64,000 nucleotides of DNA, taken from positions 14,448,001-14,512,000 of the forward strand of contig CM119372.1 of the NCBI GenBank assembly GCA_051294905.1. Reading direction: 5' to 3'. This document shows, piece after piece, positions 32,542-49,716 of this stretch. Every line of letters starts with the position of its first letter. Position 1 is the stretch's first letter. Both the position numbers and the translations under genes were made by a program. Below the pieces are notes generated by a model that saw nothing but the letters and a program-made list of their open reading frames with translations, had not been told where the DNA came from and ran no database searches. This DNA comes from Botryllus schlosseri (Eukaryota).

Positions 32542-32859
32542 AGTAGTATTATACACGGTAACGAGGCGCGCCCCAATCAGCGTCGAGTATTTGATCACGT
32601 GACATCTGTTAGCCAATCAGAATGCAGAACGAAGTGGGTGTGGTTCCAATACGAGAGAGGTTTTGGTTGTGTGAGAGATGGCATAGTTCCAGTCCAGTAA
32701 CGCTGAGATATTTATTACGTCATTGCGTAAGTTGATTACCTATAATTGCGTATTGCAGCATGTGTATAATGATTACGTCATTATACGTCATTGCGTAAGT
32801 TGATTACCTATGATTGCGTATTGCACCATATTCATGATTACGTCACAAGCGTAGTTGAT
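32542..32859 (+). repeat. Polinton left TIR (with internal 68-bp tandem duplication)
   Basis: Reverse complement of 49467..49716. Carries CCAAT boxes, TCACGTGAC and repeated TTACGTCA motifs. Confidence 0.92.
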
Positions 32860-32881
32860 GCTCACTGTTATCTTCAAAACC

Positions 32882-33376
32882 ATGGAATTATTGCGAGTAT
32901 CACCTGCGCTCACTGAAGAAAAGGATGAAATTATATCCACGGCATATTCCTTAGCTAGAAATTTTATCATGTATGAAATCGACGGCTCAAGCGTTAAAGC
33001 AAATACACAGGTGGAGAAAACCTTACGACGAGTTGTTACTGAAATATTTGAGCGATATCGAACTATCCTAAACGCAGTCTCCAAGCGCCTTCGTTATAGT
33101 GAAGTCAATGAGAAATATAAAGAACATTCACCCATTGAGCGAATGTTCCTGATGATAGCCGATGAAATATTCAAAGATAGTCAAGAAAATTGGGGTCGGA
33201 TTGTGTCTCTTTATGTGCTTGGCGGCATTCTTGCTCGCAATAACGAGGCTGCGCATAACGGCAGGGATATAGATGCTATCATACAGACACTCGGGAATTA
33301 CATTGCTACTAAAAAACGAAAGTGGATAGAACAAAATGGTGGATGGAGGCATTTTGTCACGTGGTATCACTTATAA
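32882..33376 (+). CDS. Viral Bcl-2 family protein, 164 aa, no C-terminal TM anchor
   Basis: BH1 EIFKDSQENWGRIVSLY, BH2 WIEQNGGWRHF, BH3-like TLRRVVTEI, BH4-like SLARNFIMY. ATG at 32882. Confidence 0.9.
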   Translation: MELLRVSPALTEEKDEIISTAYSLARNFIMYEIDGSSVKANTQVEKTLRRVVTEIFERYRTILNAVSKRLRYSEVNEKYKEHSPIERMFLMIADEIFKDSQENWGRIVSLYVLGGILARNNEAAHNGRDIDAIIQTLGNYIATKKRKWIEQNGGWRHFVTWYHL

Positions 33377-33413
33377 AAGCTCGATCGCAGTTACTATTTG
33401 TTATATTTACATC

Positions 33414-33713
33414 ATGGGTTCCGTGCGAATAAACGGTTGTAAGTTTATTGGATCCAAGGCCGTATCATGGATAGTATATTCGAAATGTATGAAGATGGTT
33501 GGTGTGGATGTAATGGAAATATCGTATCCTTTCACTATAGTAGAATGTGAAGGATGTAATTATACAGAGCTGGTACCATGTGATCAAGACGAAAGAAAAA
33601 CTATGAAGATATACGATACTGAAGTAACGAAAGAAGAACATCGAGTTGTTTTCAAGTCAACAGCTACAGTAGAACTATCTCATAAATTTGCTAATGCTAC
33701 TGCTCAAAACTAA
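33414..33713 (+). CDS. Hypothetical protein, 99 aa (contains CxxC)
   Basis: ATG at 33414 preceded by TATAAAA at 33372. Fills the gap between Bcl-2 and tRNA-Ala. No family recognised. Confidence 0.55.
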   Translation: MGSVRINGCKFIGSKAVSWIVYSKCMKMVGVDVMEISYPFTIVECEGCNYTELVPCDQDERKTMKIYDTEVTKEEHRVVFKSTATVELSHKFANATAQN

Positions 33714-33736
33714 CATTTAAGCCGTCACTATCGCTT

Positions 33737-33808
33737 GGGGATTTAGCTCAGCGGTAGAGCAGCTGTCTTGCAAGCAGAAGGTCACGGGTTCAATTCCCGT
33801 ATTCTCCA
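33737..33808 (+). tRNA. tRNA-Ala (TGC), Polinton-encoded
   Basis: 72-nt cloverleaf: G3:U70 pair, D-arm GCTC/GAGC, loop CT-TGC-AA, T-arm ACGGG-TTCAATT-CCCGT, A73. T6 terminator at 33812-33817. Confidence 0.9.
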
Positions 33809-33877
33809 CTCTTTTTTCCGTTGAAGTGCTAATGACGCAAAGGTGGCGCAATCATTTCAATTTGATTGTCACTCAGA

Positions 33878-34348
33878 ATGTGTGCTTTGAAAAGACTGTG
33901 TTTCGAGCGAGAAAAGTTTCGGAATTGTTCTGATTCTACTATCAAAGCGGGACCGATTGACGAATCGAATCTATTTAGTTGGTGGGCAACAATTGAAGGA
34001 CCCCAGGGAACACCATACGAAAAAGGAGTGTTTAAAATATTAATAGAATATCCCACAGAGTATCCGTTTCGACCTCCGAAGATGAGATTTGAAACTCATA
34101 TATTTCACCCGAACATTAGTGTGAAAGGCACTATATGCGTGGATATTTTGCAGAAGCAATGGTCACCAGCGCTAACTACATCAACTGTGCTGCTATCAAT
34201 ATCTTCGTTACTTGGCGCACCAAATCCAAACGATCCTATGAATGCGGAAAGTGCACATCTCTATCTGGAAGATAGACAACTCTACTTTAAACGCGCTCAG
34301 CAATATACCGAACGCTATGCCAGAGTCGACTGCGATTTGTCAGCGTGA
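33878..34348 (+). CDS. Ubiquitin-conjugating enzyme E2 (UBE2D/Ubc4-5-like), 156 aa
   Basis: ALKRL, WATIEGPQGTPYEKGVF, YPFRPPK, HPN motif with catalytic Cys (HPNISVKGTICVDIL), QWSPAL, PNPNDPM. AATAAA at 34426. Confidence 0.95.
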   Translation: MCALKRLCFEREKFRNCSDSTIKAGPIDESNLFSWWATIEGPQGTPYEKGVFKILIEYPTEYPFRPPKMRFETHIFHPNISVKGTICVDILQKQWSPALTTSTVLLSISSLLGAPNPNDPMNAESAHLYLEDRQLYFKRAQQYTERYARVDCDLSA

Positions 34349-34524
34349 TTACAATGATTAAAACTATCATTTGCTTGTGACTTGTTTATGCCTTGTAAAT
34401 ATTGATTGTGGATCGCAATCTTTGTAATAAAAACTCCATAATGTGTTGGTTATATGAAAAATAGCGCGAGTTAGTGATTTATTGACGAAGTTGCACTGGT
34501 CTGATGCAGCTTGCATTGTGCGCT

Positions 34525-47525: not shown

Positions 47526-47574
47526 CTGTTTGCGATCACAATATCACGCATGCTTGTGCCTATGAAACTAACGC

Positions 47575-47835
47575 TAGCTGCGGCTATGAATTTGAGACTG
47601 TGGCAGTTGACAGTTGCGCAACGTCCAAGATACTCATTTGAAATTTAAAAAATAACAGCTGCGGCGTGAACGTTGATTTTGAATCTGCGGCAGTTGCGAA
47701 ACAGTTGCGCAACGTTCGATATAATCAATCATTCTAAATTTTAAAAAATAACAGCTGCGCAACGTGCGAGATATTCAATCATTTTAAATTTAAGTTTAAA
47801 AAAATCAGAGAAAGAACACGCCGAGGTCTATAAAA
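47575..47835 (+). promoter_or_regulatory. Imperfect tandem repeats plus TATA box upstream of the 183-aa ORF
   Basis: Recurrent CAGTTGCGCAACGT and AAAAAATAACAGCTGCG units. TATAAAA at 47829. Confidence 0.55.
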
Positions 47836-47893
47836 CCACAGTAGCTAGTCCATAATTTCAGTTTTATTCAAGAGACATTGTTTAGATCGAATC

Positions 47894-48445
47894 ATGTCTA
47901 TAGCAATTAGAGCCGAGTCGCAACTCCCAGAAGGGCCTCTTCGGAAAGACATTTACATTTTCAATAACATATCGAAGCTTCGAATCGAAACTGCAGACGA
48001 TCAGCTGATCGATACTCAACAAGTACATGTGTTTCCAACGAATGGTGCAATACAAAGATTCAAAGCCAGTTTAACTCATAATGGGAAGCTCGTTGCGTGT
48101 TACACTCGAGAAGGTATCGAATACTTTCAGCAAATCAATCTCGCTGATGAATATATATTATATTCTCCGTCTAACGTCGTCGATGACGTAGAAAATTCAC
48201 CACTGGGGTGGATTTTACAAGAAACATCGCGTTACATTGCACCGAATGGTCAAATACAGCCTATGGATCGCGCTAAAGCGGGATTTCCAAATGGCTATGG
48301 TAACTTTGCTGGGTATTCGAATGGTGGCATGTCGAATGCCAATGCAAGTTTCCGGAATGTTGGCAATGCTAATGGAGCCTTTGAAAATAGCAATACGCAA
48401 TACGACAATCGTAGATGGATGCCAAACAATTCTAAGCAATTTTGA
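47894..48445 (+). CDS. Hypothetical protein, 183 aa, with G/N/F-rich low-complexity tail
   Basis: TATA upstream, ATCATG start, AATAAA at about 48509. No family recognised. Confidence 0.7.
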   Translation: MSIAIRAESQLPEGPLRKDIYIFNNISKLRIETADDQLIDTQQVHVFPTNGAIQRFKASLTHNGKLVACYTREGIEYFQQINLADEYILYSPSNVVDDVENSPLGWILQETSRYIAPNGQIQPMDRAKAGFPNGYGNFAGYSNGGMSNANASFRNVGNANGAFENSNTQYDNRRWMPNNSKQF

Positions 48446-48818
48446 ATTGTCTCGGAAGCGCGCTCAATGCGATATCAATTGTATTACTTTTATTGCTATG
48501 TGCGTGGAAATAAAAGCTTCATGTGATTATGATTGTTGTGTTCAATGATTTTCAGTGCTGATAGACTTACATCAAGATAGCATATGAGGTAATTTAATTG
48601 CTCTAACATAGCCCTGTAGAGCAGCTTTGTGTTTATAAGCAGGTCACTCAAGTTTAGTACTCTCCGTATTTAGAGGTTATTGCACAATCTATCTCGAATA
48701 TGCTGCAATATAGACAGGTTCAGACTTGTCTATTCACTTCTGTTGAGTGACTTTTATAACACATTTTACACAATCAAATACACATGTGCAGTTTATTATT
48801 AACGAACAAGCACATTTA

Positions 48819-48983
48819 CTAATCGTTCAGAACAAGGCGTAGAGCTTCTTTGAGATCTTGACACACTTTTTTGATATCAGAATCCCTTTTTTGATTTGCG
48901 ATGTAAAAGCAATAACAGTTTCGCATACATGAGCATATGATTACGAATAAACCGATATTGAAGTCTTCTGAGAGCATCGTCAT
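48819..48983 (-). CDS. Possible small Cys-rich protein, 54 aa
   Basis: MTMLSEDFNIGLFVIICSCMRNCYCF... lies between the death-domain stop and a minus-strand AATAAA at about 48795. Confidence 0.3.
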   Translation of the reverse strand: MTMLSEDFNIGLFVIICSCMRNCYCFYIANQKRDSDIKKVCQDLKEALRLVLND

Positions 48984-49010
48984 TATTCTCTAGTCCACGC
49001 AATTTCCCTC

Positions 49011-49298
49011 TTAGTACGTTATGTCTTTCAACAGAGCATTTGAATTGCTATTTGAAAGTATCTGACAACTGTGAACTAATTCTTCAAGTTTGTTCATTGT
49101 GGCGTAACGACCATTTTTACGAATCCATAACTGTATCATTTGATATCGTTGCTCGGTTAAGTTATAGCAATCCATGTATTGACATTCGGCAATTTCATTG
49201 TCAGATAGCTCAAGTTTTTCGCGTGCAAACCTATACCAGTTCATCAGGTCAATTCGATCCATTATGACGTATATATCATTAGCAGTAATCTTTGACAT
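49011..49298 (-). CDS. Stand-alone death domain protein, 95 aa
   Basis: Pattern WYRFAREKLELSDNEI...LTEQRYQMIQLWIRKNGRYATMNKL matches Fas/TNFR1/RIPK1-type death domains. ATG at 49298. Confidence 0.85.
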   Translation of the reverse strand: MSKITANDIYVIMDRIDLMNWYRFAREKLELSDNEIAECQYMDCYNLTEQRYQMIQLWIRKNGRYATMNKLEELVHSCQILSNSNSNALLKDITY

Positions 49299-49466
49299 AT
49301 TCAATCTACAGCGTACAGCGAATAATCATGTAATAAATATTACACGTTATATATTGCCTTGCACTTGCTTCAACTGCAATAACAAAGGCGATCAACGCAA
49401 TGTTGACGTAATCATATCTCAGCGTTACTGGAACTAAGCAAAGTCGCTCTCGTAATATCTAAAGTA

Positions 49467-49716
49467 ATCAACTACGCATGTGACGTAATCATGAACATGC
49501 TGCAATACGCAATTGAAAGTAATCAACTTACGCAATGACGTAATAAATATCTCAGCGTTACTGGACTGGAACTATGCCATCTCTCACACAACCAAAACCT
49601 CTCTCGTATTGGAACCACACCCACATTGCCCTGCGCTCCGATTGGCTAAGAGATGTCACGTGACAAAATACTCGACGTTGATTGGGGCGCGCCTCGTTAC
49701 CGTGTATAATACTACT
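49467..49716 (-). repeat. Polinton right TIR
   Basis: Reverse complement of the left end. Terminates in ACTACT followed by the TSD TACGTA. Confidence 0.92.

Follow-up and report, generated by a model that had tools for sequence, protein, structure and literature searches.

A Maverick/Polinton element in an animal chromosome raises the question of whether it is a virus that has settled there or a transposon that copies itself without ever leaving the cell, and of what the genes carried at its ends might do. This question is addressed here for an element of 17,175 bp at positions 32542-49716 of a 64,000-nucleotide stretch of DNA (contig CM119372.1, positions 14,448,001 to 14,512,000 of the forward strand), the whole of which is called the window. 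The observations described below indicate that the element is probably an endogenous, recently active virus of an animal host, of the Maverick/Polinton kind and adintovirus-like. An initial annotation of the same DNA had proposed an intact Polinton/Maverick, and the hallmarks of one are present: an integrase, an A32-type ATPase, a double jelly-roll capsid protein, the motifs of a family B DNA polymerase (PolB), inverted repeats and a 6-bp target duplication. The coordinates of all features are collected in Table 1.

The limits of the element are sharply defined. The window contains exactly two occurrences of the 38-nt terminal string, at 32542-32579 on the plus strand and at 49679-49716 on the minus strand, with 0 mismatches (0 matches expected by chance, from 100 shuffles), and TACGTA stands on both sides, just as the perfect target-site duplication and identical 38-bp termini of the initial annotation would have it. 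The terminal inverted repeat extends to about 320 nt, with arms of 249 nt and 76 nt that are each 91% complementary. AGTAGT at the start and ACTACT at the finish constitute a 5′-(AGT)2 ... (ACT)2-3′ end motif, of which the 86% lineage described below has three AGT units. The element went into a host foldback repeat some 500 nt long (window 32036-32542 and 49717-49851), interrupting one arm; the arms, of 185 nt and 135 nt with 91% and 96% complementarity, enclose a loop of 9 nt. The uninterrupted foldback arm (around 32165-32175) has only one TACGTA and thus provides a paralogous, internal empty-site control for the insertion. TACGTA is a palindromic hexamer and was also the target of a sister copy at C2:2.21 Mb.

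The genome (495.5 Mb, 219 contigs) was searched with the capsid protein and with PolB, giving the best 99 of 273 candidates and the best 35 of 354 candidates, respectively. Capsid matches at 97-100% identity occupied at least 12 rows, corresponding to the window copy and at least 11 more, and none had a stop. Among the matches listed there were also 12 rows at 84-87% identity, 39 full-length rows at 69-71%, 26 rows at 33-34% and 10 partial rows of various identity. The PolB matches listed comprised 12 rows at 92-100% identity, all open, 10 rows at 65-67%, all with one or two stops, and 13 rows at 60-61%, 11 of them open. Sister-copy statistics throughout refer to ten sister copies of the window lineage. 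They are about 97% identical in DNA to the window copy over 15.8-17.1 kb and lie in ten different flanks with ten perfect 6-bp duplications (GCCTTA, TACGTA, TCGGTT, AATGTT, GGTTTC, ACCAGT, GTCGAG, CAAAAC, TAAACA and GGGCTC). The copies all begin AGTAGTAT; nucleotides 9-33 vary among copies, and the two ends of the same copy, compared over 45 nt in nine copies, were identical in eight and differed by one base in the ninth. This young multi-copy lineage, with at least 12 near-identical capsid genes and ten independent insertion sites, agrees with the recent integration originally suggested, and it looks recently active. The cargo at the ends has been retained as well, the Bcl-2 gene, the ubiquitin-conjugating enzyme (E2) gene and the 183-aa open reading frame (ORF) in all ten sisters and the death-domain gene in nine, so that the loss of cargo in sister copies, which the initial annotation had left to be checked, is not what was found.

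Between the ends lies a core block of 15 ORFs of at least 70 aa, all on the minus strand, running from 46635 down to 34648. This corresponds to the single minus-strand block first described, and the frames of the polymerase, integrase, ATPase, protease and capsid genes are all open, free of the stops and frameshifts whose absence had been claimed. The 425-aa protein is, by its predicted fold, a double jelly-roll major capsid protein (MCP): a model built from a 10-sequence alignment (pLDDT 75, pTM 0.74) gave Foldseek matches to Sputnik (3j26, E 1.6e-16), mavirus (6g44, E 9.4e-16) and the PBCV-1 capsid, in a range down to E 1e-11. The 1309-aa protein is read as the polymerase because it has the expected motifs, shares 33% of its residues with a metagenomic Polinton PolB over 1292 aligned columns and falls with PF03175 clusters in a language-model (Atlas) search (score 0.97). 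Its exonuclease, A/B/C and KxY motifs are those of protein-primed PolB. An insert of this protein (window 43040-43240, about residues 815-875) has a GCFFH...RECEW pattern resembling Vsr-type PD-(D/E)xK endonucleases; it gave a weak Pfam RAP match (E 0.082) and is kept in the metagenomic homolog. The 150-aa ORF next to the capsid gene is assigned as a candidate adenain-like protease from its motif pattern and its position, the H..D..Q..C pattern being presumably that of adenain-type proteases; homologs were found in 45 of 74 metagenome relatives, and there was no Pfam match. The order of the core genes agrees with that published for vertebrate Mavericks (PMC8097293), and by position in that order the 249-aa and 273-aa ORFs are candidates for the PW and minor capsid (penton) genes. 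The 122-aa protein is likely to be a core or membrane-active virion protein, by analogy with the pX-like proteins of adintoviruses, and the N-terminus of PolB has an OTU-like Cys/His pattern as in adintovirus PolBs (PMC8502044).

Selection on these genes was measured as the ratio of nonsynonymous to synonymous change (dN/dS), pooled by the Nei-Gojobori method over distinct copies, the pooled pairs being non-independent. The ratio was below 1 in every gene for which more than two distinct sequences were compared (Table 1), and differences among copies were mostly synonymous. Between lineages it was 0.06 for the MCP, 0.11 for E2, 0.34 for the death domain and 0.29-0.38 for Bcl-2. The cargo is thus constrained both within the lineage (0.05-0.37) and between lineages (0.11-0.38), which settles the doubt about purifying selection with which the initial annotation had qualified its proposal. 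Because the capsid genes are under strong constraint, it is likely that the element spread through particles.

Several of the cargo genes resemble regulators of cell death. The Bcl-2 ORF appears, from its fold family and its BH1 and BH2 motifs, to encode an anti-apoptotic multi-BH Bcl-2 protein. It is nearest to Mcl-1, Bcl2L10, Bcl-2 and A1, and the alignment with Mcl-1 shows BH1 (NWGRIV) and BH2 (GGW); a C-terminal membrane anchor is not evident in its sequence, and a word-index search with it gave no matches. The nearest solved structures to the 95-aa protein are the death domains of TNFR1, RIPK1 and FADD. When the E2 is aligned with UBE2D1, HPNI...GTICVDIL stands against HPNI...GSICLDIL, with the HPN motif and the catalytic Cys aligned. 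The E2 match has one TAG in two sister copies, in which the alignment ends at residue 153-154 of 156. About 25 intronless matches, 55-71% identical to the E2 of the element and most without stops, form a tandem array at C1:34.12-34.49 Mb; the viral E2 may have come from this array, or the array from the viral E2. In the 183-aa ORF an all-beta domain is predicted with confidence for residues 1-127, followed by a disordered N/G-rich tail, and the ORF has six homologs among 1.84 billion representatives. Fold searches gave no clear match (Foldseek against PDB, best E 0.14; VIA-align wide, best Z 4.5; BFVD, best E 0.012), an Atlas search yielded scores of 0.78 only, which are uninformative, and a sequence link to a 1495-aa PKD-repeat protein does not name the domain. 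The 125-aa ORF probably has its real start at a later Met.

The cargo list of the initial annotation stands for Bcl-2, tRNA-Ala, E2, tRNA-Pro, tRNA-Leu, the 183-aa ORF and the death domain, all of which were found, but not for the 'SIM ORF', which is only a gene fragment. A single frame of 411/413 aa runs from the start of the 'SIM ORF' through the 162-aa ORF in seven of the ten sisters. The window copy has the middle of this gene swapped for an internal subterminal repeat block (46639-46964), leaving a 41-codon head and a 162-codon tail, so that what had been taken for an independent gene represents the 5′ part of a split one. The putative targeting of SUMO is based on a short V-D-V-I-D-I-T motif with which this 411-aa gene, split in the window copy, begins. 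No alignment was obtained between the 'SIM ORF' and a 538-aa ORF of the 86% lineage, and the link between them consists only of a similar N-terminal motif and a C-terminal domain. The same seven sisters that have the whole 411-aa gene also carry a 128-aa BIR (IAP) gene between tRNA-Leu and the 183-aa ORF, which is absent from the window copy and from three other copies.

Related lineages carry the cargo in other combinations, and the constant theme is at least one apoptosis-related gene at the ends. The 86% lineage has the same layout with the death domain, BIR (Pfam E 1.1e-10), the 183-aa ORF, E2 and tRNA-Ala; Bcl-2 was not found within the portion examined. In the copy examined from the 70% lineage, Bcl-2, BIR (E 7e-17) and the 183-aa ORF are present and most of PolB is gone. 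An absence of PolB throughout the 70% capsid lineage was considered and is refuted by at least 13 PolB genes at 60-61% identity, 11 of them open; the deletion belongs to the one copy examined. In the 86% capsid lineage one or two in-frame stops interrupt each of the ten PolB genes scored, and these may reflect a common defect, an intron or a site of frameshifting; the copy examined (L030:5458-9314) consists of two overlapping match pieces. When the window copy is compared with the 70% lineage, the synonymous divergence of Bcl-2 (dS) is about 0.5 and that of the capsid gene (pS) is 0.92, a saturated value. Further, loci of other kinds, and elements that are otherwise different, contain copies of the death-domain protein 100% identical to that of the window. 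The low divergence of Bcl-2 and the identity of the death-domain proteins point to an exchange of end modules between lineages.

A mechanism can be proposed from these features. The chromodomain integrase would insert the linear genome and thereby generate the 6-bp duplication. The genome would be copied by protein-primed synthesis, with the AGT-AGT terminal repeat letting the primer jump back, as proposed for vertebrate Mavericks, whose ends are likewise (AGT)2 (PMC8097293). Copying of both ends from one template would account for ends that match within a copy while nucleotides 9-33 differ between copies. The window contains 10 copies of the motif TGACGTAAT, where 0.83 would be expected. All fall within three repeat blocks (three per terminal repeat and four in the internal block), each of which directly precedes Bcl-2, the death-domain gene or the core block. 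We take the motif to be like ATF/CREB (CRE/ATF-like) sites, and the blocks may be promoters: the subterminal repeats would drive the end genes, Bcl-2 and the death-domain gene, from the outside inwards, and in the window copy the third block would drive the core block. The 183-aa ORF is preceded by three direct repeats, in which CAGCTG and TTGCGCAA-like motifs occur and which may likewise be promoter sites; scans for TATA and poly(A) motifs near the cargo genes are weak evidence given the AT-rich DNA. Among the products, the Mcl-1-like Bcl-2 would stop mitochondrial apoptosis, the lone death domain would be a decoy in death-receptor or MyD88-type signalling or in death-domain assemblies, the BIR protein would join this anti-death set in most sister copies and the UbcH5-like E2 would redirect ubiquitination in the host. 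The tRNAs would be retained by selection.

The role of the tRNA genes is the part of this scheme for which another explanation has most to be considered. The tRNA-Ala type has 26 matches in the genome, all beside Maverick capsid genes, in two lineages (12 at 95-100% and 14 at 85-86%). The tRNA-Leu of the window is unlike the copy in seven sisters at three positions. The initial annotation had the element targeting translation, a claim that codon usage does not clearly support: the shares of GCA, CCA and TTA in their codon families are 0.30, 0.28 and 0.21 in the element and 0.34, 0.27 and 0.16 in the host, for which one gene served as the reference, and the three codons are not singled out. Instead, the tRNA genes might be Pol III units or mark chromatin boundaries; they might also provide processing signals by which the cargo cassettes are protected or punctuated, or give rise to small RNAs. 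Besides the lack of clear codon enrichment, this tentative and rather less probable reading draws on the location of every tRNA between cargo genes, on the same strand as those, and on the tRNA adjoining E2, which varies by lineage (Pro in the window lineage, Ala in the 86% lineage). Against it, each of the three has a standard tRNA fold and scores above the Rfam threshold, all have U first in the anticodon, and tRNA-Ala retains the G3:U70 pair, an identity element. Moreover, the tRNAs of Polinton-like viruses are usually read as codon compensation (PMC12220804). Adjacent tRNA-Glu and tRNA-Gln genes were seen in one metagenomic relative (L065:4652-4843), which indicates that tRNA cargo exists elsewhere in this capsid lineage, though rarely (1/74 loci).

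As to the nature of the element as a whole, it is unlikely that it is a purely intragenomic, self-synthesizing transposon, copied in the germline without particles ever being formed and carrying its cargo as useless passengers. Derivatives do abound, such as a copy on C15 with the same end twice, the PolB-deleted copy and core-less palindromic loci with Bcl-2 or with Bcl-2, the death domain and a 91-aa ORF, and these rearranged or reduced forms imply much turnover inside the genome; in addition, no free genome was confirmed among 30 viral-contig pattern matches. However, capsid, protease and ATPase would be useless to a pure transposon, and yet dN/dS is 0.05 for the MCP and 0.08 for the protease; the supposed passengers have values of 0.1-0.4 within and between lineages, and tRNA-Ala has been kept in two lineages. 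Selection bears also on the idea of domestication, according to which the host retains the genes for Bcl-2, E2 and the death domain for its own use, and the viral genes owe their intactness only to the youth of the insertions. The genome does contain very many intronless matches to Bcl-2 (best 150 of 416), the death domain (140) and E2 (116, including the tandem array at C1:34.12-34.49 Mb), but the strongest selection falls on the capsid and the polymerase and not on the cargo, which furthermore is enclosed by the inverted repeats and has travelled with the element to ten unrelated sites; domestication is therefore very improbable. Finally, identical match tables for several pairs of copies, and perfect long palindromes of a sort that some assemblers produce, could suggest an assembly artefact or segmental duplication in place of independent insertions. 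This can be virtually dismissed, since no two copies share flanks, each is bordered by a perfect 6-bp duplication of its own, and all or part of the stretch is contained in 20 public runs from 10 studies under three organism labels, 15 of which have at least half of the sampled words.

Some results nevertheless weigh against an endogenous, recently active virus, or against parts of that reading. A search for a close relative or a free genome outside this genome, made as a capsid alignment scan, confirmed 0 of 30 viral-contig pattern matches, and the capsids of the 74 metagenome relatives are only 23-34% identical. Other capsid relatives outside the genome are 70% and 47% identical in two contigs and then at most 30%, and the nearest named relative, from Patella caerulea, is 30% identical. 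The 74 metagenome loci contain core genes, none of the cargo genes and tRNAs in 1/74, although most are short contigs in which absence is weak evidence. PolB has no Pfam and no PDB sequence match, and the same is true of its metagenomic homolog. The window copy is itself unlike seven of the ten sisters in its split 411-aa gene, its lack of BIR and its lower-scoring tRNA-Leu (40.8 against 57.9 bits in sister L012). The within-lineage ratios of E2 and the death domain reflect few changes (6/6 and 8/2, synonymous/nonsynonymous), and the absence of codon-usage support for the tRNAs counts here too. Lastly, all cargo functions, the promoter role of the TGACGTAAT blocks and, through its position, the penton call were deduced from sequence.

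Cargo genes are also found apart from complete elements. Very many of the Bcl-2 matches in the genome are intronless, and most Bcl-2 matches, like many of the death-domain matches, form inverted pairs 3-15 kb apart, with about 54 pairs counted by eye among the 150 Bcl-2 matches listed. Two such loci, C5:28129000-28138999 and C1:3648400-3656000, are near-perfect giant palindromes with centres of 42 nt and 72 nt; both carry Bcl-2 and no core genes, and one adds a death-domain gene and the 91-aa ORF. The centre of a palindrome holds, on one arm, a terminus-like AGTAGTAGG... sequence. The sister at C15:11059686-11077672 has the Bcl-2 end on both sides, with its perfect 6-bp duplication GCCTTA retained, and in place of the death-domain end it has the left end again, duplicated in inverted orientation, together with part of the capsid module. 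A more far-reaching proposal, which is possible but which we regard as doubtful, is that a non-vertebrate chordate, possibly a tunicate, harbours a currently circulating population of viruses whose end modules (Bcl-2, BIR, the death-domain-only decoy, the UbcH5-like E2 and private tRNAs) are shuffled between lineages and have seeded at least about 50 palindromic loci, as counted by eye. If this were true, the palindromic cargo loci, of which the two examined have cargo and no core genes, would ride the virus as satellites.

Outside the element, the only clear host gene in the window is an intronless frame of 717 codons on the minus strand (21606-23756) for an oxysterol-binding protein (PH and OSBP). 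Its best named match is from the ascidian Styela clava (57% identity across 56% of the query); those from vertebrates and molluscs reach 51-54%. The host, an animal, may be a tunicate.

Table 1. Features of the element and its target site in the window. Sisters are the ten sister copies; relatives are the 74 metagenome relatives; dN/dS is the within-lineage value.
Feature	Position	Strand	Evidence and conservation	dN/dS
Left target-site duplication TACGTA	32536-32541		seen in flanking letters	
Left terminal inverted repeat	32542-32859	+	begins AGTAGTAT; three TGACGTAAT motifs	
Bcl-2 family gene, 172 aa	32858-33376	+	Pfam E 1.1e-20; PDB E 1.2e-10; sisters 10/10 at 95-100% identity	0.37 (72 synonymous, 98 nonsynonymous)
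125-aa ORF	33336-33713	+	sisters 10/10; weak 30% match in 86% lineage	0.22
tRNA-Ala (TGC)	33737-33809	+	ARAGORN and Rfam, 67.4 bits; sisters 10/10	
E2, UBE2D/UbcH5-like	33878-34348	+	Pfam UQ_con E 1.9e-48; PDB 2oxq E 9.5e-46; sisters 10/10	0.28 (6 synonymous, 6 nonsynonymous)
tRNA-Pro (TGG)	34525-34596	+	ARAGORN and Rfam, 61.1 bits; sisters 10/10	
Two 105-aa ORFs, end of core block, annotated without function	34648-35396	-	kept in sisters; 46% and 62% in 86% lineage	
Candidate adenain-like cysteine protease, 150 aa	35383-35835	-	H..D..Q..C pattern; adjoins capsid gene	0.08
MCP, double jelly roll, 425 aa	35832-37109	-	predicted fold	0.05
122-aa protein	37160-37528	-	amphipathic middle and basic tail; homologs in 23/74 relatives	
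249-aa and 273-aa ORFs, weak paralogs	37506-39073 (37506-38255, 38252-39073)	-	homologs in 19 and 18 of 74 relatives	
70-aa hydrophobic ORF	39070-39282	-	89% identical in 86% lineage	
rve integrase with C-terminal chromodomain	39230-40237	-	Pfam rve E 1.9e-13; Chromo E 1.2e-9	
153-aa and 107-aa conserved ORFs	40228-41086	-	PZ/PM position (compared with PMC8097293); kept in sisters and 86% lineage	
A32/FtsK-type packaging ATPase	41122-41853	-	Pfam Pox_A32 E 8.5e-10; Walker A GASSSGKT	
Protein-primed family B DNA polymerase, 1309 aa	41747-45676	-	ExoI-III, A, B, C and KxY motifs	0.12
150-aa ORF upstream of PolB	45660-46112	-	88-96% identical in sisters; 52% in 86% lineage	
162-aa ORF, residues 248-411 of 411-aa gene	46147-46635	-	gene whole in 7/10 sisters	
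Internal copy of subterminal repeat block	46639-46964		four TGACGTAAT; interrupts 411-aa gene, just upstream of core block	
'SIM ORF'	46935-47138	-	first 41 codons of 411-aa gene, then unrelated codons	
tRNA-Leu (TAA)	47443-47526	+	ARAGORN and Rfam, 40.8 bits; sisters 7/10	
Three direct repeats	47609-47791		CAGCTG and TTGCGCAA-like motifs; upstream of 183-aa ORF	
183-aa ORF	47894-48445	+	sisters 10/10; in all three lineages	0.24
Stand-alone death-domain protein, 95 aa	49011-49298	-	Pfam Death E 3e-11; sisters 9/10	0.05 (8 synonymous, 2 nonsynonymous)
Right terminal inverted repeat	49400-49716	-	three TGACGTAAT motifs	
Right target-site duplication TACGTA	49717-49722		seen in flanking letters	

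Mavericks are thought to be viruses, but to our knowledge their particles have never been seen, and we know of few hosts with many intact young copies. The genome described here has a dozen copies about 97% identical, with their hallmark genes open, together with two further lineages and many derivatives. These many intact young copies make it a good place for work on transcription, on free linear genomes and on particles. The element would represent a small integrating DNA virus of an invertebrate-grade animal with an anti-death and ubiquitin toolkit resembling that of large DNA viruses, extended by a stand-alone death domain and lineage-specific tRNAs, and the apparent exchange of cargo between lineages bears on the virus-borne movement of host genes.

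Among large DNA viruses, African swine fever virus has the Bcl-2 protein A179L, the IAP protein A224L and the E2 protein I215L. The trio of Bcl-2, BIR and E2 is found here as well, spread over the copies of the lineage, and the likeness is a functional analogy only, with an unrelated and far larger virus for which we know of no death-domain-only protein and no integration. Adenoviruses replicate by protein priming and have inverted terminal repeats that open with CATCAT, adjacent promoter sites of the ATF/CREB type, an early anti-apoptotic Bcl-2 analog, adenain and a double jelly-roll hexon. The element resembles them in its repeated terminal triplet, its predicted protein-primed replication, its putative ATF/CREB-type sites, its Bcl-2 analog, its candidate adenain-like protease and its double jelly roll. 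Adenoviruses differ in their much larger genomes and in lacking an integrase and germline integration, and we know of no E2 or death-domain gene in them.

Closer systems have been described in the literature. Vertebrate Mavericks have two accessory regions, (AGT)2 ends, 6-bp duplications and genes under purifying selection (PMC8097293). The 5′-(AGT)2 ends are common to both, whereas a core on one strand, as in the element, is reported in the available part of that paper only for Xenopus tropicalis, and tRNA, ubiquitin and apoptosis genes are not mentioned there. The host also differs, as the gene tested in this genome is nearest to an ascidian and not to a vertebrate gene. Adintoviruses, which carry homologs of anti-apoptotic Bcl2 and of IAP, share with the element an animal host, an adenain-like protease (in the element a candidate), an ATPase of the IVa2/A32 type, a pX-like basic protein, the OTU-like N-terminus of PolB and accessory genes upstream of PolB, Bcl2/IAP homologs among them (PMC8502044). 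The failure of this PolB to match pfam03175 would be compatible with a place in the divergent 'Beta' class of adintoviruses. Most mammal-associated adintoviruses carry anti-apoptotic genes or candidate oncogenes (PMC11071296). The novelty first claimed for the cargo combination was consequently too broad, since Bcl2/IAP cargo (PMC8502044) and accessory regions, (AGT)2 ends and selection (PMC8097293) had been published. What is newly seen are the E2, the lone death domain and the fixed tRNAs, so that the set is only partly new. E2, death domain and tRNA are unreported for adintoviruses in the available text of PMC8502044, where tRNAs are flagged only for other MELD viruses, and the accessible main texts on polintons, including the coral polintovirus and supplements aside, report no E2, lone death domain or tRNAs in animal Mavericks; a death-domain-only decoy is a kind of viral inhibitor of which we could not find a description in the literature. 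As far as the tRNAs are concerned, the nearest comparison is with the Polinton-like viruses and virophages, which belong to the same virus class as the element and have tRNA genes in genomes of about 20 kb. These are protist viruses with 558 tRNAs over 8300 genomes (PMC12220804), whereas here two to three tRNAs are fixed in each copy of a lineage.

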